Shown here one piece after another: positions 18,874 to 52,030 of a DNA stretch of 64,000 bases. Under the pieces are notes generated by a model. That model had not been told where the DNA came from. It did not search any database and saw nothing but the letters and a program-made list of their open reading frames with translations. A program made the translations under genes and the position numbers. This DNA is from an uncultured delta proteobacterium (GTDB taxonomy: Bacteria > Desulfobacterota > Desulfobacteria > Desulfobacterales > SG8-13): assembly GCA_963848135.1 (NCBI GenBank), contig CAWKCK010000002.1, positions 434,001 through 498,000 on the forward strand, in the 5' to 3' direction. Every line of letters starts with the position of its first letter. The first letter of the stretch is position 1.

Positions 18874-19731
18874 CTATTGTTCAAAAACGCGTATCGTCAG
18901 TTTGCCCCTTATGCCGTCTCTCAGGCCCTCCAACCAAAGGCGGACGAATTCCATTTTGAGCGTTAGCACATAAAAACCCAAGGCTGCAACCAGGAGTATG
19001 ATCTGTTTGGGTGCCACGTGCCGATATCTCTTATAGAGTATCAGTGCGTTTCTTAACTTGTAATATGCCCACAGACGGTTGAGAAAAATCTTATAGACCT
19101 TGAACCCTTTAACCATGTTTTTATGGGGATGATACATGATGCTGTCGGTCACCATGGTTGTAAACTTACCGAGAGATTTTGCTCTTAGATTGTACTCCGT
19201 GTCATCTCCGTAAATAAAAAAATTTTTCTCCGGCAGACCGATCTCTTCGATGACGTTTCGATGCACGAGCAATCCGTTGAAGGGGATCGATTTTACCGCG
19301 TGGTTGCCCGTTCTCGCACTTACCTTCAATCCCCAAAGAACCGTCTTGCGGTCTTCAAGGCTCAATACAACCGGTGAATAAAAATTATCATTTTCTCCAA
19401 TGTTGTCTATCAATATCGATAAGCAGTCCTGGGTCGGAAGACAATCATCATCCATCATCCAGATCCAGTCAAAACCGGCGGAAAAGGCAAGCCGTACACC
19501 GAAATGGAACCCGCCGGCACCACCCCTATTCTCACCCAGGTTATGATAGGCAATACGGTCAACACTCCCGTATATATCGGCAACCATATCCGCGGTTCCG
19601 TCAACAGAGGCATTATCGATAACAACTATCCGATCAACCGGGCGGGTCTGTGATAACAGGGCATCGAGGCATTTTTGCAGAACCGCCTTGCGGTTGTATG
19701 TCACAACAACGGCACCAATACGCTCTTGCAT
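18874..19731 (-). CDS. GT2 glycosyltransferase, GlfT1/rhamnosyltransferase-like
   Basis: VVTYNRK, IDNASVDGT, NRGGAGGF, WMMDDDC, FFIYGDDTEY, YYKLRN. Confidence 0.88.
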   Translation of the reverse strand: MQERIGAVVVTYNRKAVLQKCLDALLSQTRPVDRIVVIDNASVDGTADMVADIYGSVDRIAYHNLGENRGGAGGFHFGVRLAFSAGFDWIWMMDDDCLPTQDCLSILIDNIGENDNFYSPVVLSLEDRKTVLWGLKVSARTGNHAVKSIPFNGLLVHRNVIEEIGLPEKNFFIYGDDTEYNLRAKSLGKFTTMVTDSIMYHPHKNMVKGFKVYKIFLNRLWAYYKLRNALILYKRYRHVAPKQIILLVAALGFYVLTLKMEFVRLWLEGLRDGIRGKLTIRVFEQ

Positions 19732-19852
19732 ACTGAGACTCTTACCTAAAATGTTATATTTTATTTAGAAAAAACTCGTCCCTGATAACGACACAGCGAG
19801 TGCTCGGCTGGCATAGGATCCAGATGCAATCGGTACATAAGAGGTGCATTTT

Positions 19853-20567
19853 TCATTTAAATAGATTGTATTTCAAAATACACCACAGGGCCCGAACGCC
19901 GTCGCGCCAGTTTATTTTCTTGCCTTCTTCGTAGGTCCGCCCGTAATAACTGATGGGGACCTCGTATATCCTGAGATTTTTTTTTGCGACCTTGGCCGTG
20001 ATCTCGGGTTCAAAACCGAATCTGTTCTCTTGTATCGCAATTCCTTCCAGTGCCTGCCGCGTAAATGCTTTGTAGCAAGTTTCCATATCCGTGAGATTAA
20101 TGTTGGTAAAAATATTTGAAAGCAACGTCAAAAAACGATTACCAACATAGTGCCAGAAATAAAGGACACGGTGTTCTCCATGGCCTGAAAGGCGCGACCC
20201 ATAAACGACATCGGCTTTTCCTGACAGAATCGGATTGAGCAGGATCGGAAATTCATTGGGGTCGTATTCCATATCCGCATCCTGCACGACGATGACATCC
20301 CCTGTGGCAGTCGAGAAGCCGGTTTGTAATGCTCTGCCTTTTCCGTAGTTTTGTTCATGAAAGCATATTTTTACAGCACTGTTTTTAGCGTCTTTCAGAA
20401 TTTGACGTGATCCGTCCGTTGATCCATCATCAACAACGATGATTTCTTTCCGAAAGGGCGCATAAGTGACGCGATCGATGATTTCACTTGATCGTACCCG
20501 CCTCATTATAGACAGGGATAACGACACTCAGTAAGAAGTCATCTTTAGGAAAGCCATTAGTTATCAT
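19853..20567 (-). pseudogene. DPM-synthase-like GT2 (polyprenol-phosphate glycosyltransferase) with an apparent +1 frameshift near 20488; possibly intact in vivo
   Basis: ATG at 20567 overlaps the upstream stop (ATGA) and reads [26 protein letters not shown]; removing one A continues SEIIDRV...[40 protein letters not shown]. Confidence 0.85.
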
Positions 20568-21910
20568 GATTGAACCTTATTGTTTCGCAAACGCTTAACT
20601 ATTATTGAAAGGGCCCAAACAGCACACATATAGAGTTCAGGGCGCAGCGGAATGGAGTATCTTGGCCAGGGAGCGAATATTGCACAAATAATTGTGAAGT
20701 ATATACAAACAACCAAAGGCATCAATGTTACGTTCATTAAATAACTTTCAATTTTCCGAGGCATCCTTATTCTTATTAGAACCATTGGTATGCTACAGAG
20801 TGTTAAAAATAATAATAGTGGATGCAAAAGCGCCATCACTTTTTTGACGCTCGCTAATATCCATGATTCCATGAATAGATCAGTTTTTACGGGGTTTATG
20901 TAAATATCACCAGTGCCCTGAATAATATTCCAATTCCATAGATAATAAGGTTTACCGATAAAATACCAGCCTATGTAACGTATTGGTTCATCTTTAACTC
21001 GAGACCAAAGGATTTTAGAAAAATTGGTGAAGGATGACCCGAAGACTGGTTGCAGAGGATCTTCACGATAAGGAATACCCCAATAGTTAGGGTTCTTATA
21101 TATAAATCCCGGATAGGCGCCATGGCTCATTGTTACCACCGCCCGATCACTCCCTTTGGGCATTCCTGCTGGAACGTTGTAATACCCCCTCAACCACCAA
21201 CTGATTGGAAAAGTAAAATATAGAGCTAAAAAAACAATGATGAACTTTGTTTTTCTTTTACCAGGAAGCTTAACTATTGAGAAATATCCAATCCACCAAA
21301 GTGCGAGGATAAAGATGAACGGGAGGAAAAGGGCTGTTTCATTTGTCAGGAAGGCACATCCGAATAAAACTGCTGAAATTCCGGCCAACGATACAGATAG
21401 ATTTCTCAATGCCAATTGAAAAAGAAAAATCGCAAATAGGAGCAAAAAAGAAAAGAGTATCTCCGTCAACAAACAAGTGGAGGTGGTGATCAAATGGGGA
21501 CTGATCGCAACCAATAATGCTGCCGAAATGGCAGCCGGAATGGTCAAGAAGAAAATTCCGGTGAAAAAAGTCAAGGGCACCAACGCAGCACTTAAAAGAG
21601 CCTGGGTGTAGACCACCCATTTCAAATAGCTCGATTCGCCGCCAATTTTCATGGCTATGGCTATAAGCAATGGGTAACCTGGTGATCTAAAAGAATCAGG
21701 AATAGGCGATAAATTATTGTCCTGTTGGGAAAAAGTTTGATAGCGTGCCAAATTTCGCCCATAGTTTACGTACTGTTCCGCATCTTTTGCTATGTGAATG
21801 TCGTTTGCCGTTTTTTGAAGATATTGAAATCGCAGCAACACTGCTACTAAAAATACAGAACAGAGTATTAAAACTGTAGACGATGTAATGCGGCGATTGA
21901 ATCCCAACAT
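20564..21910 (-). CDS. GT-C fold membrane glycosyltransferase (ArnT/PMT-like)
   Basis: TM1 followed by DAEQY loop, DSFRSPGYP, LLTEILF, APWPRYSIPL; multi-TM. Confidence 0.8.
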   Translation of the reverse strand: MLGFNRRITSSTVLILCSVFLVAVLLRFQYLQKTANDIHIAKDAEQYVNYGRNLARYQTFSQQDNNLSPIPDSFRSPGYPLLIAIAMKIGGESSYLKWVVYTQALLSAALVPLTFFTGIFFLTIPAAISAALLVAISPHLITTSTCLLTEILFSFLLLFAIFLFQLALRNLSVSLAGISAVLFGCAFLTNETALFLPFIFILALWWIGYFSIVKLPGKRKTKFIIVFLALYFTFPISWWLRGYYNVPAGMPKGSDRAVVTMSHGAYPGFIYKNPNYWGIPYREDPLQPVFGSSFTNFSKILWSRVKDEPIRYIGWYFIGKPYYLWNWNIIQGTGDIYINPVKTDLFMESWILASVKKVMALLHPLLLFLTLCSIPMVLIRIRMPRKIESYLMNVTLMPLVVCIYFTIICAIFAPWPRYSIPLRPELYMCAVWALSIIVKRLRNNKVQS

Positions 21911-21998
21911 ATCTTTTCAACCTATAAATATAGAGGACAAGAAATCCGTGAACACTGCGTGTCGGTCTTTCTTGTCTATATCACTGACGAACCATTAC

Positions 21999-22211
21999 TA
22001 GAAGGCATCTCAAAAAAGCCTTTTCGCCCGATCTGCCAGAGGCGGACAAGTATTGGCGTTGAGCCCTTGGCTAAAGTCCTCGACGTGCTTGAGTATGTCT
22101 GCGGGTTGTGACCCACATGCTGTGTTGGATCGGATGGGAAATCCCGCACAGCTGGGATTCTCGATCTCGCCTTGATCTCAACCGAAAATCCTAATTTTGA
22201 GACATCTTCTA
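21999..22211. mobile_element. MITE-like element with terminal inverted repeats
   Basis: TAGAAGGCATCTCAAAA ... TTTTGAGACATCTTCTA termini; internal hairpins such as GGGAAATCCCGCACAGCTGGGATTCTC; no transposase. Confidence 0.65.
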
Positions 22212-22249
22212 ATTGAAAGTAATGGTAAAAATACAATTACGTTTGCTAT

Positions 22250-23482
22250 TTATTTGCGTCGATTCATTTTACCTTTGATCATTTTTTTATATTCTTTAGC
22301 ATATTGTTTGGCGACGATTTCCCAATCAAATCTGTTTTCGACAGCCCGTCGTCCGTTTTTTCCCAATAATATACGTAAATCTGCATCATCAAATAAACGA
22401 ACGACGGCATTTACAATCTGCCGGGGGCTTCTCTGAGGTACAATGAGTGCAGATCTTTCATTTTTTATGATATCCTGCATAGCAGGCAGATCTGTCGCAA
22501 CAACCGCACATTCACAACCCAATGCCTCGACGAGCACGAGGCCAAAGCCTTCCCTATCTCCCCCGGCCGCTACAACCGATGGGAATACCGCCACATCGGA
22601 TGTTTGATATAGTCCAGGGAGGGATTCATTCGGAACGGCACCTAAAAATTGGATGCAATCGGCCACTCCGATATTCTCAGCCAGTATTTTTAGGGCACAT
22701 AGCTCTTGCCCGTCTCCGGCGACACGCAAAATGGCGTCGGGATGCTTTGCAAGTATCTCTGGCATGGCCTCGATCAGAAAGCGCAAACCTTTTTTTTCAA
22801 CCACACGTCCCACGAATAAAATCGCTTTGGTTTCACTTCGTTTGCGGGGCGGTGCGAATCTTTTCTTCAAGTCGACACCCATTGGTAGGACTTGAACCTT
22901 CTCCAACCCCACGCCTAAAGATTGGAGATCTTTCCGCATCACACGGCTGACAGTCGTTATCGCGTCTGTTTTTTCCAGAACGCGCCGCTTTACCCACATC
23001 ATCGCTTTGCTGCTTAGCCCGTAAAGATCTCCGCCGTGTGAGGTACACAATATTGGCAGGATGGTCGAGTGCATTCGGTTCGCGAGAACCGCGCAGGCAC
23101 CCTGGGGTATTATCCAGTGGGCATGGATAAGATCAAATCGGAAGCGTCGAAGCAGTTTCAGAATTGCCAGGGTTTGAAACAAAAGGAAAAAAGGTATAAG
23201 TGCATATCGGCACTGGTTCTTCTTGAGATTTGCCAGAATACCACCCTGGTAGGCAAGGCTTTCCCATTGCGGAAGAAAGTAATGGTATCGGGTAACCCGC
23301 ATGCCGTCGAAGGTCGTTTCGGAATCGGCACCCGCCGCATGGGGGGCCAGAATATGGATCTTGAAGTGTTCAGCCAACCGGCGACACAATTCCAGCACAA
23401 AAGGCGGTTCGGTGTCCCCTCTCCAGCGTGGAAAAGTCGATGTAAGCACCAGTATTCTTGAAGATGCCGAAGATGTTTTCAA
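22250..23482 (-). CDS. GT4 family glycosyltransferase
   Basis: LTSTFPRW, HAHWIIPQG, SHGGD, FVGRVVEKKG, EGFGLVLVEAL (EX7E). Confidence 0.92.
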   Translation of the reverse strand: MKTSSASSRILVLTSTFPRWRGDTEPPFVLELCRRLAEHFKIHILAPHAAGADSETTFDGMRVTRYHYFLPQWESLAYQGGILANLKKNQCRYALIPFFLLFQTLAILKLLRRFRFDLIHAHWIIPQGACAVLANRMHSTILPILCTSHGGDLYGLSSKAMMWVKRRVLEKTDAITTVSRVMRKDLQSLGVGLEKVQVLPMGVDLKKRFAPPRKRSETKAILFVGRVVEKKGLRFLIEAMPEILAKHPDAILRVAGDGQELCALKILAENIGVADCIQFLGAVPNESLPGLYQTSDVAVFPSVVAAGGDREGFGLVLVEALGCECAVVATDLPAMQDIIKNERSALIVPQRSPRQIVNAVVRLFDDADLRILLGKNGRRAVENRFDWEIVAKQYAKEYKKMIKGKMNRRK

Positions 23483-24402
23483 TTTTTGTGCTCTCGCTCG
23501 TTCGTATCTTCAATGTCTGCTTTTTTTTTAACGATCCGGGGCGTGGCTCGTCTCTCGTATCGCATCTGGCATACCTGCTCCGAAATAAGGCTCATCATGA
23601 ATATGATGACCGATGTCACAAAGAACAACGCGCTCATATTTGTAAATCTTCCTTCCGTGATGAAAGTGTATATGTAGCGCATCATTCCCAGGATGAACAT
23701 TATGAAGCTTACCGGAAGAAATACCCGCATTGGAGAGTACATGGTTGCGATCCGCGTGATGATCATGAAAAATCGGACCCCGTCCTTAAAGAACCTGATG
23801 TGACTCTTTCCCTGCAACCGTTTTTTGGTTTTTATGGGCAAATACTTGACACTGTTTCCGTTTCGGAGAACCCCAAGCGTGATTGTCGTCGGATATGAAT
23901 ACGTATTTGGTAAAAGATATAGAAAGTTGCGGGCAATGTCGGCTTTTACAGCGCGAAAACCGGAGGTCAGATCTTTAACCGAAAATTTGGTCACATAAGA
24001 TGCAAACCAATTGTATACTTTATTGCCAAGGGCGCGGCCGAGAGAGGCCTGACCGCTGCCTGACCGGGCGCCGACGACCATATCGTAATCGGGGAAATAG
24101 GCGAGCATGGCATCGATGTCCGCAGGGTCGTGTTGGCCGTCTCCGTCCATAAAAACCAGCACCTCACCTGTTGCCGTCCGGATTCCGCTTTTTATAGCGG
24201 CGCCGTTACCGATATTGTAAGGATGATTGAAAACAACGGCACCGGAATCTTCTGCAATTTCGGCCGTGTTGTCTTCCGATCCATCATTGATGACAATAAT
24301 CTCAGCTTCAGTGAAATAGCTTCGAATCTTTTTGACGACTTCGGCGATGGTGTGTTCTTCATTATAGGCCGGAATTATTACAGATACTTTAATAGGTTTC
24401 AT
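23479..24402 (-). CDS. DPM-synthase-like GT2 with two C-terminal TM helices
   Basis: VIIPAYNEE, INDGSED, NIGNGAA, MDGDGQH, MVVGAR, DLTSGFRA; hydrophobic C-terminus. Confidence 0.9.
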   Translation of the reverse strand: MKPIKVSVIIPAYNEEHTIAEVVKKIRSYFTEAEIIVINDGSEDNTAEIAEDSGAVVFNHPYNIGNGAAIKSGIRTATGEVLVFMDGDGQHDPADIDAMLAYFPDYDMVVGARSGSGQASLGRALGNKVYNWFASYVTKFSVKDLTSGFRAVKADIARNFLYLLPNTYSYPTTITLGVLRNGNSVKYLPIKTKKRLQGKSHIRFFKDGVRFFMIITRIATMYSPMRVFLPVSFIMFILGMMRYIYTFITEGRFTNMSALFFVTSVIIFMMSLISEQVCQMRYERRATPRIVKKKADIEDTNEREHKN

Positions 24403-24461: not shown

Positions 24462-27400
24462 TCAGCTTCCATTGGTTCGGGACTTTTTGAGAGACTGATA
24501 ATACTTAAGCGCCGATTGGTACTTGAGGTTGCCAGGATCCAATTGATTCGCTGTTTTCATGACGGCCACGGCATCGTCAAACATGGAGAGGCGTGCGTAA
24601 AAGCTGGCCAAAACAGACAGGCCATTGGGCTCCAGGGGCGCCAAGTCGACTATTTTTTTTTGTAAACGCAGGCAGGTCTCCAGTGTGTCCTTGCTGATTG
24701 TCTCTTTGGTCATGAGCCTATAGGTGATCCAATCCTGGCAAAATCGCACATAGCGCAACTTTATGACCCTGTTGCCCGGGTGAGAGATCAACAGTTTATC
24801 CAAGATCCGCAGCCCTTGGTTTACATCTTCCTGGGCAAAGGCCGTTTCAATCATTTTCATTATGGAAAGGTTTTCATTGATATCAACATCTGCTCCGTTT
24901 TCAGACCACCACTCCTTCCAGGTCTTATAATCATAACGGATTTCTCCCGGAAAGTCCGTACCACAAAAAAACGCCAGGTCTTTAATAAGGTCTTGATCAT
25001 AGTGCTCACCCGTGTCGATAGAGGGAAATTTCAGCGTTTCGATCAATACCGGCAATCCTTCTTTCCTTCCGTTGAAGGCCAGGGACATGGAAGCTGCGCG
25101 CACGACATATACATCCGGATCGTTCAACGCATCTATCAGCGCTTGAATCCCTTCCGCTTCGGGGCGGATATAGCGCATCCCTATAGCCGCATCACGGCGA
25201 ACGATCGAATCCGAACTGCCGATCCATTTCAACAGTGCGCCATGTGCATATTGCTCTGTGAGAGCATCATCTATGTCATCTCGAAATAAAATCTCCTGAA
25301 ACGCATTGGAGGCCTCACGCTTGCATCTTTGTGACGTTTCGTTGGTATACGTATCGTCCAAAATTCTGAGGTGGTCCCTGTTACCTATTCTGCCCAGCGT
25401 CCAGATAATTTGGGCACGAACTTCAGGGACAGGATCATTTAAGGCATTGACTATGGCCGGTCCGGCAAATTTGAGGTCCCACCACCCCAATGTCCGGGCC
25501 GCATAAATTCTGACCGCAGGATCACAGGCATTGATGAGTTCTACAAAATGATGGGCCCGGCTGCGGGACATCTGCTTGCGAAGGATGAAACTACTGAGAC
25601 TTTCAATAAGAAAATGGTTTGTCTCTCTTTCCCTCGATGTCTGCAGCGTGTCAATTAGGTCGTCTATAATATCCGGATTTGCGCGCATCAGGTGACCAAC
25701 GGATGCAAAACGCTGAAAATTGTCGGATCGATTCAGCTCAATGATTTCCTTTTTCAGAGAGGGGGATGTTTTCGGTTCCCCTATACACGTTGTCGGCAAG
25801 GACTGGTCGTCTATCACCTGGAATTTCACATCGCTTTTTATCGGATTTTTATCGCTGTGATAGTCGATATCGTAAAACAACCCATGAGCCAAATCGATAT
25901 GGTAGGAATTGTTTTCCCGATCCAACGGGTAATAGTCGTCATTACCGCCGAGGTCTAAAAGCAAAGCGTGGCTCCAATTGTGCGGATCAGCCGGCGGGAT
26001 AACGGCTGCACAGCTGGCGCTTCGATCTCCGCGCCGCGCAAAATAACGATCATCGCCATCGTAGTCCAAAAGAAAACCCAATCCTTTAGGTCTCGATGCG
26101 GAGGCATAGGAAGCATATGCTAAACCGGCTTCAATTTTGCCCATGGATTTCGAATCTTCATTGTCGGCTATCAAACGGTTTTGATCTGCCGGCCATTCGT
26201 TATTTAACAACTGAGGCCCATAGAGATCATTGCCCTTGTAATCTACCAACATGCCGACGGATCGGTCCGCTCCCACGCCGCCGCTATCGTTTTTGGCGAT
26301 ATACGTGTCGTTACCCTCTCTATCAATCAGAATTCCGCTCGCAAGGTGAACGGCGAATCCCATTCCGTTTCCGTCCTCAGGAATGTATCGGTCATTGCCA
26401 GCATCATCCACGAGTGCACCGACCGACATGAAATATCCGGCGCCCATACAGTTGCCTTTCAGGCAATGATAGGTGTCATTACCAGCGCCGTCGGTTAGAA
26501 ACCCGACACCACCATAAATCGAAAAGCTCCTGCGCCAGTCCGGCGAGCGGACCGATAGGCCAACACCTTGAGCGTGGGCCCAATCGTCCGCCTTCAACCG
26601 GCCTTGATGGGAATCGTCTCCTCCGGCTGTGTATTCATCGTCGCCGCTGAGGTCGCACAATCCACCGAACCCCATGGTTGAACCGGCTCCCTGGCCCAAA
26701 CCGCCGATGATGTAACGGTCGTTACCGTTCAAATCGACAAGTAATCCCATTCCAAACAGGCCGAATCCTTGCCCCATCAATCCCATTTGGTATGTGTCGT
26801 TTCCTTCCCCATCAGAGAGTATACCGAAACCGAACATACCGCACCCCTGCGACATCTCACCGGCGATATAGCGATCGTCGCCGGAAAGATCGCTCTGTAT
26901 ATGGATACCTGCAATTCCGGCCCCCTGAGCGAAACGTCCCGCGGCGGCAGCGTATTGATCATTTCCGGCAGCATCTATGATGACTGACACACGGTTTTGG
27001 GCGGTCAACCCGGTTCTGCCTCCACTGAAGTAGCTGTCGTTGCCTCCAAGGTCGATAAGCAGGGCCGCCGACCCTGTGTATGAATCGTCACCCTGTCCGA
27101 GTATCACAATATTTCCTATCGGGGACGGCAGGTTCAAAACCGTACCGGTGTGTTCTTTCCTATCGCCGGAAAATAACGGGGTAGCGTTTTTAGCGTTGAC
27201 AACCAGGTTTAGGTATCTTGAAAATTCGTCGATTTCCGAGCAAAGAGACAGCAAAGCAAAAATGAGCTTGGGGTATTGTATCCGGCGAGCCATTGAGACG
27301 ATTTCAACCTGTTCGTGGGTCGGCGCCGTCAGAAAATTAAAGTTTAGTCCGTCTGGATAGAAGTATTTCTCAGGATGTTCTCTAAGACGTGACACCTCCT

Positions 27401-40370: not shown

Positions 40371-40373
40371 GAG

Positions 40374-42034: not shown

Positions 42035-42317
42035 TATGTATTTTCCGGGCCTGATCGCTCCCAGATCCTGCGATAGAAACTAATAACGCGCTCGAAGAAG
42101 CCGGGTCCGGCCGTATAACCGTCATACTATTGGCACTCGCATCAAGTATTCCGTGGGCTTTTTGACTTCAGAAAAGGCTTTGTTACGCAGATCCCAGGCC
42201 AGTATTCCCCATATGCTGAAACTGGATATGAAATATGCAGGCTGGCACTGTCACTTGTTTCCGTGTAATCGGAAGACCGAGAACACGTTAGCGGGAGGCG
42301 AGCAGAAACGGTGGATT

Positions 42318-44051: not shown

Positions 44052-44094
44052 CGGTCGATATAGAAGACTTGATTGTTATATCATTCAAGCGCGA

Positions 44095-45276
44095 TTAATC
44101 GGCAACATGTAGCAATATTTCCGGTGGGATTTGACCACTGTATAGCTTACCGTCGATCAGAAAAGCCGGCGTACCGGATACACCCAACTTCAGACCGTCT
44201 ATAATATCACGATGTAACTTTTTGCTGAAATCATTTCGGTGGAGCGCGCGAGTCAATGCTTCATAGTCAAGCCCGATTTCGTCGGCCAATACTTGCAGAT
44301 CAATCCGATCGGTAAATCGGGCATTGGCGAACAGGTAATCGTTTGTTTGCCAGAATTTTCCTTGCGTGGCTGCATAAATGGTTAGAATGGCCAGTGCGCC
44401 GGCACCCTTATGATTTTGACTTTTTACAATCGGGTTGACGGTGTGGTCCATAGGGAAATGACGATGGATGACTTTTATCTTTCCGGGATAGCGAGTCATT
44501 ATTTTCCGGAGATAATAGTTCATCTTACTGCACTGGAAACAGAGATAATCCGAAAACTCGGTGATAACCACCTTCCCGTTTTCAGCGCCGATCCAAGGAT
44601 GGCCGTCTGATGTCAATCCACTGGGTTGATCTGCCGACAAAAGTGCAGTTTTTAAATTCCAGTAGGATGGGAATAAGGACCAGAGGAGAAGAACCCCAGC
44701 CAAAAAAGAGATGAATACGAATTGGGCTGTTTTTCGCCATGTCCAAATATATCGGAGGTCATGCCCAATACTATTGTGTAAGGGCTCGTGAGCGAAGCGC
44801 TTCCTGATCAACCAGCAATAGTACAGTAATAAAAAATTAATCGCATAAACCAGAACACACATAATACAGTAACTATCAATATAGACATGGGAAATGACGG
44901 CAAGAATGATGCTAGAAATACTGTATACCAGTGCCACTATAAATATGACGCCCCATACTCTTTTTTTCTGCGCCGACGCTCTACCGGCAAACAGTAGCAG
45001 GAGAAGTAAAAAAATGTACCCGATCACTCCCCATACCGGAACGGGCATCCCCATAAAAATGGCATACGGGCTTTGTGAAACGGTATCGCAATTTATTGCT
45101 CTTGATATTGCGCAGAAGCTTTCGTAGCCAATATCATTATATATTCGATAATGTGAGACTGAAAGATAGGCGGAATCGGCTAACCCGATAAACGCCAAAG
45201 ATACAACTGTCCAGAAATAAACACCATATGCCAAAGGCTTTATCACGGCATTTCTGTCTGTAACAATAAGTGCCAT
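44095..45276 (-). CDS. VKOR-DsbA(thioredoxin) fusion, disulfide-bond formation
   Basis: VKOR loop Cys pair FCAISRAINC and TM CxxC YCIMC; thioredoxin domain EFSDYLCFQC, HRHFPM, GVSGTP (cis-Pro loop). Confidence 0.9.
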   Translation of the reverse strand: MALIVTDRNAVIKPLAYGVYFWTVVSLAFIGLADSAYLSVSHYRIYNDIGYESFCAISRAINCDTVSQSPYAIFMGMPVPVWGVIGYIFLLLLLLFAGRASAQKKRVWGVIFIVALVYSISSIILAVISHVYIDSYCIMCVLVYAINFLLLYYCWLIRKRFAHEPLHNSIGHDLRYIWTWRKTAQFVFISFLAGVLLLWSLFPSYWNLKTALLSADQPSGLTSDGHPWIGAENGKVVITEFSDYLCFQCSKMNYYLRKIMTRYPGKIKVIHRHFPMDHTVNPIVKSQNHKGAGALAILTIYAATQGKFWQTNDYLFANARFTDRIDLQVLADEIGLDYEALTRALHRNDFSKKLHRDIIDGLKLGVSGTPAFLIDGKLYSGQIPPEILLHVAD

Positions 45277-45309
45277 TTCGATACGATGTTTCCTTTCAAT
45301 CGATCGATA

Positions 45310-47388
45310 TCATTGATCTGTCGTTCCTGTTGTGGATAGACGGATATATTTTGCCATTTCACTGGTGATAGTTTGTTCTAATTTGCGATAATCATTCTTG
45401 TTATTAAGTGTTTCCTTGGAAATATCACCTAAGGATAATAAAATGGCTTCAACAGATGCGGATTGAATAAGATACCGAAGTAATGTCTCCACTTCTTCAG
45501 AGTCTTGCATCCGGAGATTGACGTCGATCAATCGTAAGTAAGTCAATATGTTTTCCGGCGCGAGGTTAAGTCCTATCTTGAATAGTTTCTCGGCCCTGCG
45601 GTTTGCGCTTATAGCCATCAGGGCGATACCGGCGTTCACATAACCGGCGGATTGACTGGGGTTGGCAAGGATTGCATCACGAAAAGCGATCAATGCACGT
45701 TCAGGATTATATTTATAGAGATGAATCGTTCCTTTTAGATTCAGATAATCGTTATTCCGCGGGTATCGCCGAAGGAGTATGTCAACATGACTTAAGGCGT
45801 TGTCCCACTTTTTTTGCTTCCGGAGGGTATCAGCCAAGCGATAACGGAAATACACTTTATGAGGGGCAATTGCATGGGCTTTCTCGAAATAAATCTCAGC
45901 ATCTTTGTATCGTCCTTGCCGAAAGTAGATATTGGCGATATTGCCATAAAGCTCGGCGCGATGGGAGCGCCGGTGCATTTTGAGATTTTCGGATCTTTGA
46001 TAGAGTTCCAGGGCCTTGTCCAGATGGCCATTTTTTTCATACAGAGCCATCGCCAGGTTATGAAGTGTCCGCTGAAGACGTGGCGCTTTGCGATAGGCAT
46101 CTGACCATAGGGAGACCTCGGTCTGCCAATCGCGGTTACGCTGATAAGTCCCAAAGCCGAACCCGATAATCAGCAAGATGATAAAACCAGACACGATCAG
46201 ATAATCGATTCTCCGGCGTTTGTATTCACGATCGAGCAGCCATTTCGCCCCGATGGCAACCGGAACAAAAAGAAACATGGAGGGAAGATAGTTGCGGTGT
46301 TCAAAAACCAACTCAAGAGGTAGAATTGTCGATTCAATAAGGTGATTTAGAAAGAAGAATAAGATGGCAAAACTGAGCATCGGGCGCTTCTTAATTTGAG
46401 CCAGAGCATAGAAAATCAATACTGCGATGACAACCATTGCCGGTATGGTCGTCCACGGATGCCACAATGACGTAGACACCTGGATGTCATGGTCAATCGA
46501 TAAACGTGCGGAAAGAGGAAAAAATATCTGTGTCAGGTAGAAAACAAGCACCCGCGGCTGGGTCAGTATACGTTCCATCGGCGTAAAATAGCGATCGCCA
46601 TACCCGGAAAATACCGACATGGCATCGCCATTAAGATAAAGAGCGCCGCCGATCCCTGCAACCACAACAAATCCGATAATACCGGCTGTCAGAAACCGCT
46701 TGCGGGTTTTAGTTTCATCCATATTATTGAAAAAGATAAACTCCACGAGGACAAGTATCAGTGGCAGCATCGCGGCGTTCTCTTTCGATGCCATTCCCAG
46801 CAACCACAAAACCATGGTAAACGAAGAGAAAAACAGAAAATTGCTGCGTTTGACTGTCGATCGTGCCTTAAGATAGCAATAGATACCGGCAATGCAAAAA
46901 AATCCCGCCAACACAGTCATACGCTGAACGATGTAAGTCACCGCCTGGACCTGAATCGGATTGGCGGCCCAAAGTACCGCGGCTAAAAGGGAAATAAAAT
47001 AGGTGGATCCCGTGTATTTCTTCATTAACGCCGGGGTCTCAAGTAAACATCTTGTCGATAGGAAAATCAGAAACGCCGTCAAGACGTGAAGCAGGATATT
47101 AACAAAGTGGTAACCGGTGACGATATTTTGACCGATGTACCAGTTAAGGGCAAAAGTCAGGAAAGATACCGGGCGCCAGTAAGAAGTTCTCTCCGGATGC
47201 TGCGTCGATTGAATCAATAGCGTAGGCGTGAGTTGGGCAATCTGTACCTTCGGATTGTTGACGATACTGAAATAGTCGTCAAGGTGCCAGGAGGCATTCA
47301 GGCTATTGCTATAAATGGTCAGCGTGAGGAAGAAGAGAAGGATTAAAGGAAACAGCAAGACTCTTGATGTCGAGTTTACATGACTCAT
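45310..47388 (-). CDS. TMTC-like GT-C glycosyltransferase with C-terminal TPRs
   Basis: WHLDDYFSIVNNP, YWRPVSFLTFALN, WAANPIQVQAVTYIVQR, SKENA, LSIDH, FEHRNYLPS, RNRDWQTEVSLW, then TPRs. Confidence 0.87.
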   Translation of the reverse strand: MSHVNSTSRVLLFPLILLFFLTLTIYSNSLNASWHLDDYFSIVNNPKVQIAQLTPTLLIQSTQHPERTSYWRPVSFLTFALNWYIGQNIVTGYHFVNILLHVLTAFLIFLSTRCLLETPALMKKYTGSTYFISLLAAVLWAANPIQVQAVTYIVQRMTVLAGFFCIAGIYCYLKARSTVKRSNFLFFSSFTMVLWLLGMASKENAAMLPLILVLVEFIFFNNMDETKTRKRFLTAGIIGFVVVAGIGGALYLNGDAMSVFSGYGDRYFTPMERILTQPRVLVFYLTQIFFPLSARLSIDHDIQVSTSLWHPWTTIPAMVVIAVLIFYALAQIKKRPMLSFAILFFFLNHLIESTILPLELVFEHRNYLPSMFLFVPVAIGAKWLLDREYKRRRIDYLIVSGFIILLIIGFGFGTYQRNRDWQTEVSLWSDAYRKAPRLQRTLHNLAMALYEKNGHLDKALELYQRSENLKMHRRSHRAELYGNIANIYFRQGRYKDAEIYFEKAHAIAPHKVYFRYRLADTLRKQKKWDNALSHVDILLRRYPRNNDYLNLKGTIHLYKYNPERALIAFRDAILANPSQSAGYVNAGIALMAISANRRAEKLFKIGLNLAPENILTYLRLIDVNLRMQDSEEVETLLRYLIQSASVEAILLSLGDISKETLNNKNDYRKLEQTITSEMAKYIRLSTTGTTDQ

Positions 47389-47418
47389 TTGCGGTTAACG
47401 TTTTCTGTTATATCATCG

Positions 47419-49495
47419 TTATAATTGACTAATTTTAAGCCGAATATTGGATTGTATGTCGCCGATCGGGATATTGAGATGTCGGTTTTGAGCAACGAGA
47501 TGTCTCAAATATGCCAGGGCGTGGGACGAGCCGACCCGCTCGATAAAACGATCCAGGTGTCGCCCTGCCGCTGTTTCTTCACCGACAATCATTCGGTTTT
47601 TTGCCAGCAAAAGATGCACCAACGGTTCAGTCGGACGGGCGGCTTCAGCCATGGTCATAAAATTATAACCCTGCTTCAAACTGCCTTGCATCGTCATTGC
47701 GGCACCGATGCCCAGCAGGTTTTGCCAATCTGCCGAATCCAGTTTAAGGCACGCTTGAAAATATTTTAAGGCTTCCTCCGGTTTGCCCTCATACAACAAA
47801 ATTATGCCTTTCAGTCTGAGCACATCTTCTTGCGGCGGTTTCTGGGAAATTATGTTCGCCAACGTTACTGAAGCGTCCTGCCATTTCCCGAGTCTTGTCT
47901 GGGTCAGACTGAGACGATAATAAATGCGATCATACCGGGGATAGGTTTCCAAAGCCATTTTAAAATACTTTTCAGCCTCGGGATAATTACCCCGTGTAAA
48001 ATGGATACTGGCAATGTTGTTCAAACTGCGGGTTTTTTCGTACACGTTCTGGCCGTTGAGATTGAGACCGCGATGGTAAAGATCAAGCGCCTCATCGTAA
48101 AACCCGTGTTTCTCGTAATATTGAAACGCCAGCTCGTGATGCGCCCGAATCGAACCGGGAGCCTTACGAAGAGTATCCTCCCAAAGGGATTTCTCATTGG
48201 CCCACGCCTTATTCCTGATGTATGTCCCTGTTCCCAAGCTGATTATGGCAAGAATAATGGCAGCCACGAGAAAACGTCGCATAGGCGGACTGCTGACTCG
48301 ATAATTCTCGAGGATTTTTTTGAATCCAAAGGACAACGGCATGAAAATAAAAAGCGAAGGGAGATAATTTCGGTGCTCATAGACCAATTCCAACCCGATA
48401 ACGGATGATTCTATTATATGGTTGATAAAAAAGAAGAGGATCGCGAAGCTCAACAGCGGTCTGCGCCCCATCCAGTAAAACCCGAAAACAATGAGGGCCA
48501 GTATCATTCCGATGCTCGGCAGGGTTGTCCAGGGATGAAAAATGGAAGTTGATACCAAAATATCATGATATATGGAAAGCCGGTCCGGTACAGGATAGAA
48601 AATCTGCGAGAGATACAACATCAGAACACGGGCCTCTGTGAGCAACCTTTCGATGGGGGTGAAGGTTCGAAAGGGATACCCCCTGAAAAAGCTGAACGGG
48701 TTGCCGAAAAGGTAAGTCCCCAGCAGGAGGACAAGGAGTCCTCCGGCGGCAAGGCACAGACCGAAATGCAACCTTTACACGCTTGTCACGTAAATCCCGG
48801 AAAAAGATGAACTCGACCAGCAGGAGAATCAACGGTAGCAAGGCCGCATTTTCTTTGCTGAATAGGGCGCATATGTAACTCATTGCGCACAAAATGAATA
48901 GCGCCAGGCGTGCGCCGAAATTAGGTTTTAACCTTGCCGTAAGGTACAGGTAGACAGCCAGCAAGTAAAACATCGCCGCCATCGATGCCATCCGCTGGAC
49001 AATGTAGGTCACCGCCTGGGTATGGATGGGATTGACAGACCAAAGGGCTGCGGTCAGCACCGCCGTCATAAAAGCATGGCTGCGCGATACTCCTTTCATT
49101 GCCGGTGTTTTCATCACGGCCAGAACGGTAGCAAACAGCAAAAGCGTCGTCAGAACATGAACGGTGATGTTGACGAGGTGGTAACCGAGAACATCGGTAC
49201 GGTGCACGAAGGCATTGAGGGCAAAGGATAAATAAGCCAGAGAACGGTAAGGTTTACGCTTGCCTTCCGGTGATGCGAAAAACGTCTGCCAGAGGGTACC
49301 GGGCTTCAGATCATTGATGAGCACCCGAGGGTTGCTTTGAATATTGGCATAGTCATCCAGGTGCCAGGATGACTGCAGGGTGTTGCTGTAGATAATGGCG
49401 ACCCATAAAACCAAAAGGAAAATGACAAGGCTGTACCCGGAAATTTTGTCGAATTTCTTATTGGTTTGGCACCCAGGCTGTGGCAGGCGGTTCAT
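47419..49495 (-). pseudogene. TMTC-like GT-C glycosyltransferase with TPRs, split by an apparent +1 frameshift at 48764-48766; possibly intact in vivo
   Basis: WHLDDYANIQSNP, YRSLAYLSFALN, NPIHTQAVTYIVQR, SKENA; deleting one T gives VKVAFGLCLAAGG and continues to YEHRNYLPS, RNKAWANEKSLW and TPRs. Confidence 0.85.
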
Positions 49496-49609
49496 ACATC
49501 CATTGGTTGGTATTTATTGATGACCAGGTAACGTCCTTTTCAAGCTAACTGCACTGAATAATACCATTTTTAGCCTAAAATTACCATCAGTCTGTTATGT
49601 TTTGATCCA

Positions 49610-49647
49610 AACAGAAAAGGGGAGTTGAATCCCTCCCCTTTTCTGTT
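49610..49647 (-). terminator. intrinsic terminator downstream of pilA (symmetric, potentially bidirectional)
   Basis: AACAGAAAAGGGGAG-N8-CTCCCCTTTTCTGTT perfect 15-bp inverted repeat, about 30 nt after the pilA stop. Confidence 0.8.
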
Positions 49648-49674
49648 GGTTGTATTATGTCAGTTTACGAAATA

Positions 49675-50073
49675 TTAGTTGAGCCAGTACCCCTGCGAAC
49701 CACCCATGGTCTTGTAGAACTGGGTGCTGCGCGGGCAGCGATTGGAATCATCGTCGACAAAGATCTGGGTCAAGCCGGGCGTGTCCTCATCGATTGAAAT
49801 GCTGGTGGGCAAATTGTTGGTCGACAGCTGTTCGGTACTTCTTAGTTCATCCACAGTCGGCGTCGTGGTGTGGTCCGGCTCGGAGAAGTATGACGCCAGG
49901 GCCGCGGCGACACTCTGGGCATCCTGTTCACCGTAGCTGCAGAAGGCCTTGTCGCGGTAGGCGATGAAGTTAGGAATCGCGATGGCGGCCAGAATACCGA
50001 TGATAGCAATAACGATCATAAGTTCGATCAGGGTAAAACCTTTTTGATTGTTGCCTCTCAATTTCTGTAGCAT
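49675..50073 (-). CDS. pilA: type IVa major pilin
   Basis: Prepilin leader [34 protein letters not shown] with E5 and P22; strong SD AAGGAGGT; sigma54 promoter; adjacent PilR-like regulator. Confidence 0.92.
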
Positions 50074-50221
50074 GTTGTGACCTCCTTTTGGGAATGTAAT
50101 TTACTATATCAATGACAATGAAAGTAAATGAATTTTGGGTTTAATCTTGCGACTGTTTCCTTTGCCACCTCCTTCTGAATCTGTTTATTGGTTGTCATCA
50201 ATCATGTTTGCTGGTTCATCC

Positions 50222-50237
50222 TGCAATGCGCATGCCA
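50222..50237 (-). promoter_or_regulatory. sigma54 (-24/-12) promoter of pilA
   Basis: Minus strand TGGCATG-CGCA-TTGCA; AT-rich IHF-like tract (AAACAATAAGTTA) just upstream. Confidence 0.8.
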
Positions 50238-50363
50238 CACTGGCGACAGCACTTCACGATTTTTTAACTTATTGTTTTTATTGTTTTTATATCGACTTCC
50301 CAAAAAACGTGCACTCATGACAGGCCAAAACCCGTTGCCGCGAACCGAATTTTGTTAATGGCT

Positions 50364-50378
50364 TGACAAATATTGTCA
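50364..50378. promoter_or_regulatory. candidate upstream activator (PilR) binding site
   Basis: Inverted repeat TGACAA-ATA-TTGTCA about 130 bp upstream of the sigma54 box, with additional TGTC/GACA half-sites nearby. Confidence 0.55.
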
Positions 50379-50629
50379 GGAAAATGTCGAATCGACGAGT
50401 TATGTGGTCGGCGAGCCTATCACCCTGGTTCGATTCAGATCGAAATACTGAACTTTGAAAAATTGTCTAGGAGATGATAACTTTTGAGGATGTCAAAACA
50501 CATTCCGTTATGCGACCGTGATTCACCAACCACGAATACCATCCGTCTGTACCTCGGAATTTATTTTTAAAAACGGAAGGAGTAAAGGGATACGATGTTA
50601 AGGATTTCGAAAATTGGAAGAGCCTACGC

Positions 50630-52030
50630 TTAGTCGGAATTTGTCCCCAGTTTGTCCAGACGGTAGCGCATCGATCGGAAACTGATCCCGAGCAGATCAG
50701 AGGCCTTGTTCTTGTTTCCGTTAGCAACTTCAAGCGCTTTGAGAAGATAGGCGCGTTCGATTTCTTCCAGGATGTTGTCCAGAGAGACGCCCTGAGATAC
50801 CTCATCAAGATCGAAGCGCCTGTCCCTGACACCCTCGATCCAACGGCGCTTGTGGATGGAAAGTGCCAGGCTGTCCGGCAACAGGATGTTGGTGGTCGAT
50901 AGCGCCACACTGCGTTCAAGAAGGTTTTCCAATTCACGAATATTGCCTGGGAAATCGTACTTGTTGAGCATATCGATGGCGTATGAGGATATTTTAGAAA
51001 TTTTCTTACCCATTTCCCGGGAATATTTATCGAGAAAGTGCTGCGCCAGGGCCCGCAAGTCGCCCTTCCGGTCTCTCAACGGGGGCATCTTGATTTCAAT
51101 AACATTCAAGCGATAGAAGAGGTCTTCCCTGAAATTCCCTTCGATGACCTCTTTTTCCACCTGCTTGTTTGTCGCAGCAATGATTCGGATATCAACCGAC
51201 AACTCTTCACTGCCGCCCACCGGCTTGAAGGTTCGTTCCTGGATGGCCCTCAGAAGTTTGACCTGGATCGGCATACTGAGTTCACCGATTTCATCCAGAA
51301 ATATCGTACCTTTGTCAGCCACCTCGAAGAGGCCCTTTTTGTCGTAAGTGGCACCGGTAAATGAGCCTTTCTTGTGACCGAAAAGCTCGCTCTCCATTAA
51401 GGTTTCCGGTATCCCGCCGCAATTTATAACCACAAACGGTTTGTCGCTGCGATCACTCTCCTGGTGGATGGCCCGGGCGATTAATTCCTTTCCGGTTCCG
51501 CTTTCACCGGTTATGAGAACATTGGTGCGTGTCGGTGCCACCTGGCGGATCATTTTATATATATGAAGCATGGCCGGGCTGTTGCCGACAATTATATCAA
51601 AATGAAGATTCTTCTTGAGCTCGCCTTCGATAATTTCTTTCTCGTGTTCAATCGTCTTCAGATCGAGCGCTTTGGCGATGGTTTGCTTCAGCTCTTCGTT
51701 GTCAAAGGGTTTGGGCACATAATCATAAGCGCCCATGTTCATGGCTTCAACCGCTGTTTCTGTGGTCGCGAATGCTGAGATCATTATAACGGTGGTGTCC
51801 GGATGTTTTGCCTTCGACGCTTTCAAGACATCCAGGCCGGTCATGTCTCCCAGCTTGATGTCGCAAAGCAGCAGGTCGTAGTCATTCTTGTCGAGCGTAG
51901 AAATGGCTTTGCGACCACTCTCTGCAAGGGATACCCTGTAGCCTTCCCGGGAAAGCAGGAACTCGAGCAACTCGCGCATGCTCAGTTCGTCATCTACAAC
52001 CAGAATATGCGGTTGAGTATTGGGTGTCAT
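50630..52030 (-). CDS. pilR: sigma54-dependent response regulator (REC-AAA+-Fis HTH), PilR-like
   Basis: LVVDDE receiver, GESGTGKE, ESELFGHKKGSFTGA (GAFTGA variant), FLDEIGE, DLFYRLNV, PGNIREL, GISFRSMRYRL HTH; directly upstream of pilA. Confidence 0.88.
   Translation of the reverse strand: MTPNTQPHILVVDDELSMRELLEFLLSREGYRVSLAESGRKAISTLDKNDYDLLLCDIKLGDMTGLDVLKASKAKHPDTTVIMISAFATTETAVEAMNMGAYDYVPKPFDNEELKQTIAKALDLKTIEHEKEIIEGELKKNLHFDIIVGNSPAMLHIYKMIRQVAPTRTNVLITGESGTGKELIARAIHQESDRSDKPFVVINCGGIPETLMESELFGHKKGSFTGATYDKKGLFEVADKGTIFLDEIGELSMPIQVKLLRAIQERTFKPVGGSEELSVDIRIIAATNKQVEKEVIEGNFREDLFYRLNVIEIKMPPLRDRKGDLRALAQHFLDKYSREMGKKISKISSYAIDMLNKYDFPGNIRELENLLERSVALSTTNILLPDSLALSIHKRRWIEGVRDRRFDLDEVSQGVSLDNILEEIERAYLLKALEVANGNKNKASDLLGISFRSMRYRLDKLGTNSD

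Follow-up and report, generated by a model that had tools for sequence, protein, structure and literature searches.

What does a long, uniformly oriented row of glycosyltransferase genes do directly behind the gene for a major type IV pilin? The question is raised by a 64,000-nt stretch of DNA from an uncultured delta proteobacterium (assembly GCA_963848135.1, contig CAWKCK010000002.1, positions 434,001 to 498,000 of the forward strand), which was analyzed as a whole and is called here the window. In it, 22 genes, all on the minus strand, extend from position 18874 to a pilR gene at 50630-52030, according to the listing of open reading frames (ORFs) and to Pfam/NCBIfam scans. Besides pilA, they encode nine glycosyltransferases of the GT-C fold, four family-2 glycosyltransferases (GT2) of the DPM1/GtrB-like type, a fifth GT2, methyltransferases, a GT4 enzyme, a VKOR-DsbA fusion and a lipoprotein of 1195 residues. 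The source genome (6.03 Mb, 18 contigs) is 98.65% complete, and the nearest homologues of the proteins of the window belong to Desulfobacterales/Desulfobacteraceae, by the names of the source records. We consider, with a probability of roughly 55%, that the locus is a pilin maturation island, in which the pilin would acquire a disulfide bond and O-linked sugars taken from polyprenyl-phosphate sugars. The gene content, the folds, the motifs, the promoter-like and hairpin sites and the conserved neighborhood on which this proposal stands are shown by the analysis.

An earlier description made from the letters alone (the sequence-only reading) had presented the locus as one for pilin glycosylation. 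As it claimed, every reported gene from pilR to 18874 lies on the minus strand, and candidate starts are found at each of the nine coordinates that it gave for GT-C enzymes (49495, 47388, 44051, 38382, 35711, 33270, 31377, 30009 and 21910). The best NCBIfam matches of the four proteins that it called DPM/GtrB-like GT2s (41891, 39422, 24402 and 20567) are polyprenyl-phosphate sugar synthases, and Pfam matches were obtained for the methyltransferases, the GT4 and the disulfide-forming fusion. All the genes that it named are present, but the lipoprotein (24462-28049) and the fifth GT2 (18874-19731) had been omitted, and the GT2 gene whose start was correctly placed at 20567 shifts its frame near 20490.

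The pilA neighborhood and its conservation

The part of the locus closest to pilA contains the following features, where TPR stands for tetratricopeptide repeat and TfpW is the pilin arabinosyltransferase discussed below.

50630-52030, minus strand: pilR-type sigma-54-dependent response regulator (Pfam Response_reg, Sigma54_activat with E 3.3e-73, HTH_8)
50222-50237, minus strand: sigma-54 promoter-like site TGGCATGCGCATTGCA, around 150 nt upstream of the pilA start, in the pilR-pilA spacer and on the coding strand
49675-50073, minus strand: pilA, major type IVa pilin precursor of 132 residues (N_methyl E 7.5e-12, PilA_Myxo E 2.5e-16)
49610-49647, minus strand: hairpin with a 15-bp stem, directly 3' of the pilA stop codon
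47419-49495, minus strand: TfpW-like GT-C plus TPR, copy A, frameshifted near 48745 (ORFs 48563-49495 and 47419-48771)
45310-47388, minus strand: TfpW-like GT-C plus TPR, copy B, intact, 692 residues (TPR Pfam matches at residues 430-690)
44095-45276, minus strand: VKOR-DsbA fusion of 393 residues (Pfam VKOR 93.3 bits, E 1.8e-26; Thioredoxin_4 64.8 bits; DSBA 55.2 bits)
42318-44051, minus strand: PMT-like GT-C of 577 residues, without TPR (PMT_2 47.7 bits, cut-off 26.1; PMT 37.1 bits, cut-off 22.7)

The pilin precursor carries the class III signal KGFTLIE, a Ser/Thr/Pro-rich loop after the long helix, and two cysteines, Cys45 and Cys113 (precursor numbering), which are invariant in 22/22 aligned PilA homologues, the latter within a conserved RCP motif. 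The pilins of Thermus, Neisseria and Pa5196 are glycosylated at the position corresponding to this Ser/Thr-rich loop, according to two sources (PMC7203116; bioRxiv 10.1101/2020.04.19.049825). A good Shine-Dalgarno sequence precedes pilA, and no site of the 64-kb window other than TGGCATGCGCATTGCA matches TGGCAY-N5-TTGCW exactly, with 0.24 expected by chance. In relatives, pilR orthologues 72-89% identical also stand before pilA. The hairpin behind pilA is the strongest found in a scan of positions 38000-52700 and likely acts as a terminator or attenuator, and the first GT-C gene (49495) starts on the same strand after a gap of 179 nt. A second sigma-54-like site, CGGCACGATCATTGCT (42019-42034, minus strand), has one mismatch, keeps the GG-N10-GC spacing and is located in the 426-nt gap upstream of the gene for a methyltransferase-GT2 fusion. 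It could be a second PilR/sigma-54 promoter, and it is treated here as a lead because near-matches occur at chance frequency (56 sites with two mismatches in the window, 60 expected).

The association of these genes was studied in two independent samples. In the first, 151 genomes of the order, a gene of the copy-B family (E <= 1e-40) was found in 86 and a PilA-like gene in 143. Coordinates were compared for the 150 listed matches of the TfpW-like protein and the 150 of the pilin, with 17 and 194 further matches outside the comparison. Among the matches listed, a TfpW-like gene lies 1 kb or less from 21 of the best 50 pilin hits and from 30 of the 150, in such a way that in 27 of these 30 it is downstream and on the same strand. 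For the second sample, an alignment-based contig scan was made on named species-representative genomes, and of at least 617 relatives it retained 76 loci; after dropping five without a whole ORF and 12 with less than 700 bp upstream, 59 were evaluable. PilA is encoded directly upstream of the TfpW-like gene in 37 of them and another pilin-like protein in two, a pilin gene is located elsewhere within 4 kb in 11, and none is found within 4 kb in the remaining nine. VKOR-DsbA follows in 27 of the 33 loci that have PilA upstream and enough downstream DNA. The sequence-only reading had named beforehand, as an observation that would refute it, a lack of conserved linkage between the GT-Cs and pilA in relatives; a pilin gene was found 4 kb or less from the homologue of the first GT-C in 50 of the 59 evaluable Desulfobacterota loci. 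The link between the TfpW-like GT-C and pilA is not a product of chance.

Named carriers include Desulfobacula, Desulfosarcina, Desulfonema magnum, Desulfamplus magnetovallimortis, Desulfosudis oleivorans, Desulfofustis glycolicus DSM 9705 and Desulfobulbus, and further ones are Ca. Electrothrix, Ca. Electronema, Smithella, Syntrophales, Syntrophorhabdaceae and Desulfatiglandales. PilA is followed by TfpW-like genes in two loci of Electrothrix (L108, L114) and two of Electronema (L100, L130), and the locus of Desulfofustis glycolicus DSM 9705 (L101) has the order PilA-TfpW-like-VKOR/DsbA-PMT-like.

The composition of the neighborhood was mapped in 20-kb stretches around 22 pilA loci, hand-picked from the best hits and hence a non-random set. 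VKOR-DsbA is present in 21 of them, a GT-C/TPR gene directly after pilA in 18, a PMT-like GT-C in 15 and a DPM-like GT2 in most. Two loci without the GT-C/TPR gene (G016, G036) keep the order pilA-VKOR/DsbA-PMT-like GT-C, a third has only pilA-VKOR/DsbA (G166), and in G031 pilA sits amid GT2 and GT-C genes. The recurrent core is pilR-pilA-[GT-C/TPR]-VKOR/DsbA-PMT-like GT-C-DPM-like GT2, and TfpW-like and PMT-like GT-Cs, a second GT-C/TPR family, VKOR-DsbA and DPM-like GT2s are found beside PilA homologues in many Desulfobacterota families. Distal genes of the window also recur in other pilA islands in shuffled order, namely those for the methyltransferase-GT2 fusion, the separate methyltransferase, the second GT-C/TPR family, the large lipoprotein, the GT4 and two DPM-like GT2s (a and b). 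The window holds the largest version seen, an expanded and composite island with nine GT-Cs, compared with zero to four in the relatives examined.

Within the genus the island is accessory, as a GT-C/TPR gene was detected in three and a close pilR in five of the 15 other genomes. One of them (G001, locus L161, G001:C7:79000-98999) has an 89% identical pilR, followed for 17 kb by neither pilA nor any gene of the island that was found, which indicates that the whole pilA island is acquired or lost in one block inside the genus.

Four further loci, L037-L040 (G030:C1, G035:C28, G024:C10 and G020:C11), contain TfpW-like paralogues, 33-36% identical, beside a different class of pilin-like gene (N-terminus of the product GFTLIEIIAVLVIMGILAAVAVPKF...) and another sigma-54 regulator. 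The family of TfpW-like enzymes may act in several systems, of pilins or of pseudopilins.

Enzymes and accessory proteins of the locus

The TfpW-like protein has at least 3561 homologues. Apart from a chance match to ETRAMP, no Pfam entry was matched at E <= 10 by residues 1-436 of copy B, which form its membrane domain. The AF2 model of copy B (pLDDT 87.2) shows around 11 long helices before residue 420, followed by the TPRs, and in 42 homologues the residues W34, H35, D37 and D38, which belong to a WHLDDY motif directly after the first transmembrane (TM) helix, are invariant together with several charged loop residues. When residues ~3-475 were compared with 48,161 solved chains by a VIA-align fold search, the only membrane proteins matched were GT-C enzymes: AglB (3waj; Z 16.1, 318 residues aligned, root-mean-square deviation (rmsd) 4.4), ALG12 (Z 15.5), STT3 (Z 15.2), ArnT (5f15; Z 15.1, 313 aligned, rmsd 4.6), Pmt1/2 (Z 14.4, 332 aligned), Pmt4 (Z 13.8), PglB (Z 13.1) and AftA (Z 12.5). 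As chance can bring helical models to Z values of about 13, the weight rests on the consistency of the GT-C matches. As modeled, copy B has the GT-C fold. The TPR part matches OGT and two pilus-biogenesis lipoproteins, PilW (Z 15.5) and PilF (13.6), such matches being generic for TPRs, and a profile search of solved structures and a Foldseek search with the whole model returned TPR proteins only. A complex prediction for the TfpW-like enzyme and the mature pilin (residues 13-132), run without controls, scored 0.00 against a mark of 0.32 and is evidence neither way.

The VKOR-DsbA fusion shows a CxxC motif in each part, CIMC in VKOR and CFQC in DsbA. A second gene of the VKOR family, with an open frame of 425 residues, is located outside the island on another contig (G000:C17:552782-553177, locus L063). 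It is probably the housekeeping periplasmic oxidase, so that the island VKOR-DsbA can be a private copy. The PMT-like GT-C, in which the Pfam scan found no MIR domain, is the most conserved GT-C partner of pilA and VKOR-DsbA in relatives, with orthologues 40-53% identical in 15 of the 22 mapped pilA loci.

The rest of the island is composed as follows (SAM, S-adenosylmethionine).

40374-41891, minus strand: fusion of a SAM methyltransferase and a DPM1/AglJ-like GT2, 505 residues, without TM segments (Methyltransf_31/25/23, Glycos_transf_2, AglJ E 5.8e-31)
39579-40370, minus strand: SAM methyltransferase of 263 residues (Pfam Methyltransf_11/23)
38379-39524, minus strand: GtrB/ArnC/PgfS-like polyprenyl-phosphate glycosyltransferase (PgfS E 2e-73, ArnC-type E 8e-46, both under the equivalog cut-offs)
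35704-38382, minus strand: YfhO-like GT-C of 892 residues with an F5/8 type C (discoidin) domain at the C-terminus (YfhO 33.8 bits, F5_F8_type_C)
33369-35711, minus strand: GT-C plus TPR of the second family, 780 residues, FDD motif in the first loop (TPR matches; 21% identical to copy B)
31462-33270, minus strand: GT-C plus TPR of the second family, 602 residues, YDD motif in the first loop (PMT_2 30.2 bits, TPR)
30000-31377, minus strand: short PMT_2-type GT-C, frameshifted near 30521 (ORFs 30490-31377, with 44.2 bits to PMT_2, and 30000-30578)
28090-30084, minus strand: PMT_2-type GT-C, 664 residues from a TTG at 30084 or 639 from 30009 (PMT_2 37.6 bits)
24462-28049, minus strand: predicted lipoprotein of 1195 residues (Pfam HEAT_2)
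23479-24402, minus strand: DPM1/AglJ/GtrB-like GT2 of 307 residues with two C-terminal TM segments (AglJ E 8.2e-39, PpgS E 1.3e-26)
22250-23482, minus strand: GT4 (GT-B) glycosyltransferase of 410 residues (Glycos_transf_1, Glyco_transf_4)
20564-21910, minus strand: short PMT_2-type GT-C, intact, 448 residues, DAEQY in the first loop (PMT_2 21.9 bits, under the cut-off)
19853-20567, minus strand: DPM1/AglJ-like GT2 without TM segments, frameshifted near 20490 (AglJ E 5.4e-33)
18874-19731, minus strand: GlfT1/rhamnosyltransferase-type GT2 of 285 residues (NCBIfam GlfT1 E 3.9e-31, far under the cut-off)

Relations within the locus were studied by all-against-all BLAST and a hydropathy script. 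Four of the GT-Cs bear TPRs and belong to two families; the two members of the second family are 44% identical to each other, and orthologues of the shorter one (31462-33270) adjoin pilA in G016, G031, G034, G098 and G123. Among the others, the product of 28090-30084 is 23% identical to the PMT-like GT-C of 42318-44051, and that of 20564-21910 is 40% identical to the ORF 30490-31377. An acidic motif was recognized by eye after the first TM helix of all nine GT-Cs (WHLDDY, FDD/YDD, SRDAL, NLDS, DSRQY/DAEQY, GNDY), and these motifs would be the catalytic ones.

The four DPM1/GtrB-like GT2s (41891, 39524, 24402 and 20567) find their best NCBIfam matches in AglJ, PgfS, ArnC-type, PpgS and Dol-P-hexose (dolichyl-phosphate hexose) transferase entries, with E values from 1e-31 to 2e-73, all under the equivalog cut-offs. 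By hydropathy, C-terminal hydrophobic segments are present in two of them (39524, at residues 260-319, and 24402) and absent in the two others (41891 and 20527); soluble enzymes of the DPM1/Ppm1 type exist too. Orthologues of the GT2 at 23479-24402, 58-76% identical, occur in many pilA islands, the GT4 is syntenic in G005 and G098, and the separate methyltransferase accompanies the methyltransferase-GT2 fusion in G018, G037 and L117. The start of the GtrB-like GT2 is probably at 39422, and its stop is overlapped by 4 nt by the start of the YfhO-like gene, whose match to YfhO (33.8 bits, cut-off 28.5) covers only positions 757-834 of the 835 of the profile.

The large lipoprotein, from a family of at least 862 members, is built of an N-terminal helical domain, a calcium-type beta-helix (residues 312-730, with around 14 G-x-D-x-Y turns whose G, D and Y columns are invariant in the alignment), HEAT and TPR repeats. 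In its AF2 model (pLDDT 85.6), residues 312-730 match the calcium-dependent antifreeze/adhesin beta-helix of 3p4g (Z 17.0, rmsd 3.0, 265 residues aligned, 22% identity), and an ESM Atlas look-up with the whole protein yielded nothing beyond generic HEAT/TPR clusters, with scores of 0.81-0.82, under the useful level. A protein of 1755 residues known from a single metagenomic record (P0163) is a natural fusion of a second-family GT-C/TPR, 51% identical to the product of 31462-33270, with a homologue of the lipoprotein, and thus hints that the lipoprotein and the GT-C/TPR enzymes work together.

The spacers between the genes are mostly shorter than 100 nt, or the genes overlap, with the exceptions of the 179 nt after pilA, 426 nt at 41892-42317 and 339 nt at 21911-22249. 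At its distal end the island abuts a convergent polysaccharide cluster of the ABC-transporter type (8406-18863, plus strand), which encodes a NAD epimerase/dehydratase, an ABC-2 permease and ATPase, a GT2+GT8 fusion, a GT2, a flavin amine-oxidoreductase-like protein, possibly of the galactopyranose-mutase type, and another GT2. This cluster ends 11 nt short of the GlfT1-like GT2 (18874-19731), which may belong to it, so that the membership of this gene in the island is uncertain.

The three broken genes were compared with their relatives. Copy A has a 1-nt frameshift near 48745, and its two parts correspond, in the same order and at 41% identity, to residues 15-232 and 251-649 of copy B; the short GT-C of 30000-31377 has one near 30521, with halves aligning to residues 14-281 and 283-443 of the product of 20564-21910. 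In the GT2 starting at 20567, the 5' end (MITNG...) is in a different frame from the ORF 19853-20527, the change taking place around 26 codons in, and a same-genus orthologue (G005, 88% identical) reads through without a frame break. Long homopolymers are absent from all three sites. The comparison also took in contigs from four sediment metagenomes, which cover the stretch in a patchy manner; in this cover no indel was recorded near 48745. A marine-sediment contig (X3, ~94% identical) lacks one base exactly at 30521, and thus the short GT-C gene is in frame in this relative. The site 30521-30524 may be polymorphic in natural populations. In another, near-identical sediment metagenome (X1), the first base of a contig falls on 30524, at a distance of three bases from the frameshift site. 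Around 19 flanking genes have full-length Pfam matches, and the difference between 3/22 frameshifted genes in the island and 0 of about 19 around it is not significant.

Relation to known glycosylation systems

TfpW, the GT-C pilin arabinosyltransferase of P. aeruginosa/paraeruginosa group IV, is described as a protein of 646 residues with a cytoplasmic N-terminus, 11 TM helices, loop 1 bearing a DDx motif and a periplasmic TPR domain, encoded just after pilA and with ArnT as its best template (bioRxiv 10.1101/2020.04.19.049825). Both TfpW and the first enzymes of the island adjoin pilA downstream, have ~650-700 residues, around 11 TM helices, a first periplasmic loop with a DD motif, a large TPR domain at the C-terminus and an ArnT-like model, and use a lipid-linked donor, a predicted one in the island, a likeness by that published description and not by sequence. 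The comparison with TfpW already drawn in the sequence-only reading is borne out by the adjacency to pilA, the TM count, the DD motif, the TPR domain and the GT-C fold. Of the proline-rich motif Y-X6-P-F-X7-P that precedes the TPR domain in TfpW, the first half has a nearly invariant counterpart in Y284-x6-P291 (consensus YLSQIFYPxPxRLS), and the second half is unmatched.

The two systems differ in several respects. There is a single GT-C in the case of TfpW and up to nine in the island, which adds VKOR-DsbA and the beta-helix/HEAT lipoprotein and belongs to a different host phylum, Desulfobacterota. Pfam/NCBIfam searches of the locus found none of the D-arabinofuranose donor genes (DPPR synthase, DprE1, DprE2), and donors would be provided by GT2s of the DPM1/GtrB type. 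A gap at the flippase step is common to both. A lone DprE1-like FAD oxidase (L160 6870-8357, G000:C2; NCBIfam 215 bits, cut-off 500) is encoded ~170 kb from the window beside a gene of the histone-deacetylase family and a GNAT gene; having no DprE2, SDR or UbiA partner, it provides no evidence for an arabinofuranose donor pathway.

The pairing of a polyprenyl-phosphate sugar synthase of the GT2 class with a GT-C that moves one sugar to Ser/Thr of a protein across the membrane is known from the actinobacterial Pmt/Ppm1 and the eukaryotic PMT (GT39) systems. The same pairing is present in the island, where the product of 42318-44051 scores over both the PMT and PMT_2 cut-offs of Pfam, although this enzyme has no MIR domain and is tied to one client gene, pilA. 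A further parallel is that of TMTC1-4, the O-mannosyltransferases of cadherins, which share with copy B an 11-TM GT-C followed by lumenal (here periplasmic) TPRs, an acidic DD after TM1 and ArnT as nearest fold (PMC7801869). By the criterion of that source, in which all TMTCs match the DUF1736 loop (TM7-TM8) at E < 1e-30, copy B is not a member of the TMTC family (GT105), as DUF1736 was unmatched even at E <= 10.

TfpO/PilO and PglL likewise modify the major pilin, and the group I gene of P. aeruginosa is also located beside pilA, but they are Wzy_C enzymes that transfer an oligosaccharide en bloc from undecaprenyl pyrophosphate. Pfam detected Wzy_C in none of the 22 island proteins, and the six Wzy_C genes of the genome are located elsewhere. 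Finally, the translational coupling of the GtrB/CsbB-like GT2 (38379-39524) to the YfhO-like GT-C (35704-38382) is the arrangement found in YfhO/CsbB, GtrABC and the Pgf system of Streptococcus mutans (PgfS). Teichoic acids, the substrate glycosylated by the known YfhO systems, are absent from diderms. The island differs from YfhO/CsbB and GtrABC in the discoidin domain of its YfhO-like protein and in the absence of any match to a GtrA flippase in the genome. The pilin-modifying Ogt of cyanobacteria was also considered as a relative and rejected, being described as a soluble GT41 enzyme (PMC9306852).

The sequence-only reading stated that no characterized locus of this form was known, which stands with respect to function. 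As a gene cluster, the combination of pilA, TPR and sugar-modifying genes had already been drawn for Ca. Electrothrix by Geelhoed et al. 2023 (PMC10580974), whose text shows pilA, TPR protein(s), a methyltransferase and a 'phospholipid carrier-dependent glycosyltransferase' and reports PilA as the most abundant protein of cable bacteria. It is the same neighborhood as in the window, where the island is several times larger. In that text the TPR proteins were taken as protein-protein interaction modules and not as GT-Cs, and neither pilin glycosylation nor a disulfide role was proposed. In literature outside subscription journals, we found no link of VKOR/DsbA to pilA neighborhoods and no proposal of pilin glycosylation by GT-Cs in Desulfobacterota; likewise, none of 12 papers that mention both VKOR and type IV pili makes such a link by its title or abstract. 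New here are the recognition, in structural models, of the TPR proteins beside pilA as TfpW-type GT-C enzymes, a coupling of pilA, near-universal in Desulfobacterota, with VKOR-DsbA and with the pair of a PMT-like GT-C and a DPM-like GT2, the identification of the beta-helix/HEAT partner and the exceptional expansion to nine GT-Cs.

Proposed pilin maturation pathway and its rivals

In the pathway that we propose, PilR and sigma-54 would drive pilA, and the hairpin behind it would allow partial read-through and so lower levels of the modifiers. The prepilin would be held in the inner membrane through its N-terminal helix, and the VKOR-DsbA of the island would form its Cys45-Cys113 disulfide. 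On the cytoplasmic face, the DPM1/GtrB-like GT2s would load monosaccharides on polyprenyl phosphate, giving up to four species, to one of which the fused or adjacent methyltransferases may add a methyl group, and a putative flippase would move them across the membrane. In the periplasm, the TPR-bearing GT-Cs would bind the membrane-anchored pilin and start O-glycosylation at Ser/Thr of its alpha-beta loop and head, with the TfpW-like GT-C/TPR and the PMT-like GT-C acting first, and the further GT-Cs, the GT4 and the methyltransferases would add or vary sugars, or act at other sites. What we infer from the neighborhood and the protein families is the acceptor, the sugars, the sequence of steps, the operon structure and the stepwise action of all nine GT-Cs on the pilin.

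Several observations weigh against such a pathway. The YfhO-like gene, its GtrB-like partner and the GT-C starting at 30084 were found in none of the other pilA islands examined, and the YfhO-like gene is present in only 4/151 genomes of the order. One island (G034) has no VKOR-DsbA though its pilin carries two Cys. The genome, as said, offers no GtrA-type flippase. Several genomes contain up to seven TfpW-like copies, which together with the nine loci without a nearby pilin gene indicates that the family is not exclusive to pilins. The 426-nt and 339-nt gaps may divide the locus into separate transcription units, a polysaccharide cluster adjoins its distal end, and, as three of the 22 genes are frameshifted, some of the enzymes may no longer work, or indel errors may be present in the assembly. 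The conserved linkage to pilA and the shared features of TfpW uphold the idea of pilin glycosylation, and it is for the YfhO-like/GtrB-like pair, the 30084 GT-C, the three broken genes and the end next to the polysaccharide cluster that the sequence-only reading, as one of a single unit, is weakened.

The strongest rival, which we regard as rather unlikely, is that of a composite locus in which pilin maturation is confined to the proximal core, from pilA to 42318 and with one DPM-like GT2, and the distal modules (41891-18874) decorate another periplasmic acceptor, for instance the polysaccharide of the adjacent cluster, lipopolysaccharide or other envelope glycoconjugates, as in GtrABC or YfhO/CsbB. 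The two long gaps, the first with its one-mismatch sigma-54-like site, would fit separate modules, but sigma-54-like sites at two mismatches are no commoner than chance. A sugar-binding domain of the discoidin type is part of the YfhO-like protein, whose gene, besides being rare, accompanies two GT-C/TPR genes in one genome (G028), on a contig of 8 kb where no pilin was seen. The convergent polysaccharide cluster keeps this alternative alive, above all for the last, GlfT1-like GT2. On the other side, distal genes recur inside the pilA islands of G005, G018, G037, G098, G123 and L117.

[quoted passage not shown] Four TPR-bearing GT-Cs of two families in one locus, the multiple TfpW-like copies of relatives, the paralogues L037-L040 beside different pilin-like genes and the nine loci without a pilin nearby point in this direction. 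However, the tight and oriented adjacency to pilA (37/59) is typical of dedicated modifiers, and the absence of the island from most genomes of the genus (GT-C in 3/15; pilR alone in G001) would be unexpected for a housekeeping system. That the pilA-linked genes are relics under pseudogenization, contributing little in this strain, is very improbable, since the three 1-nt frameshifts outside long homopolymers, the full-length matches of the flanking genes and the in-frame contig of a relative at 30521 are offset by an intact paralogue in the locus for each broken GT-C, by the other 19 genes being intact with lengths that match their orthologues, and by an excess of frameshifts that is not significant and may come from assembly error.

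Beyond the maturation island itself, a wider and more tentative picture can be drawn, in which Desulfobacterota, including cable bacteria, would have a conserved, pilin-dedicated 'periplasmic ER'. There, a private VKOR-DsbA would fold the pilin and a variable set of up to nine GT-Cs would build complex, partly methylated O-glycans directly on it, drawing on several polyprenyl-phosphate monosaccharides and adding the sugars singly, while TPR domains and the calcium-beta-helix/HEAT lipoprotein would hold the substrate. Its content would be diversifying quickly, like the pilin accessory genes of Pseudomonas, and phages may be what presses it to do so.

One Pseudomonas lineage, that of TfpW, is known to glycosylate its pilin through a GT-C that draws on lipid-linked monosaccharides. 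Here the same logic appears as a conserved neighborhood in Desulfobacterales, Desulfobulbales (cable bacteria included), Syntrophales and others, joined to a private disulfide oxidase. This offers a testable function for at least 3561 proteins labeled only as 'tetratricopeptide repeat protein' and for at least 862 beta-helix/HEAT lipoproteins, and a bacterial model for TPR-guided protein glycosylation by GT-Cs of the TMTC kind. As cultured carriers of the core island exist, the hypothesis is directly testable. It bears on how the pili of sediment bacteria appear to phages, surfaces and partners: as the neighborhood suggests, their pilus protein would be oxidized and sugar-coated on its export from the cell.

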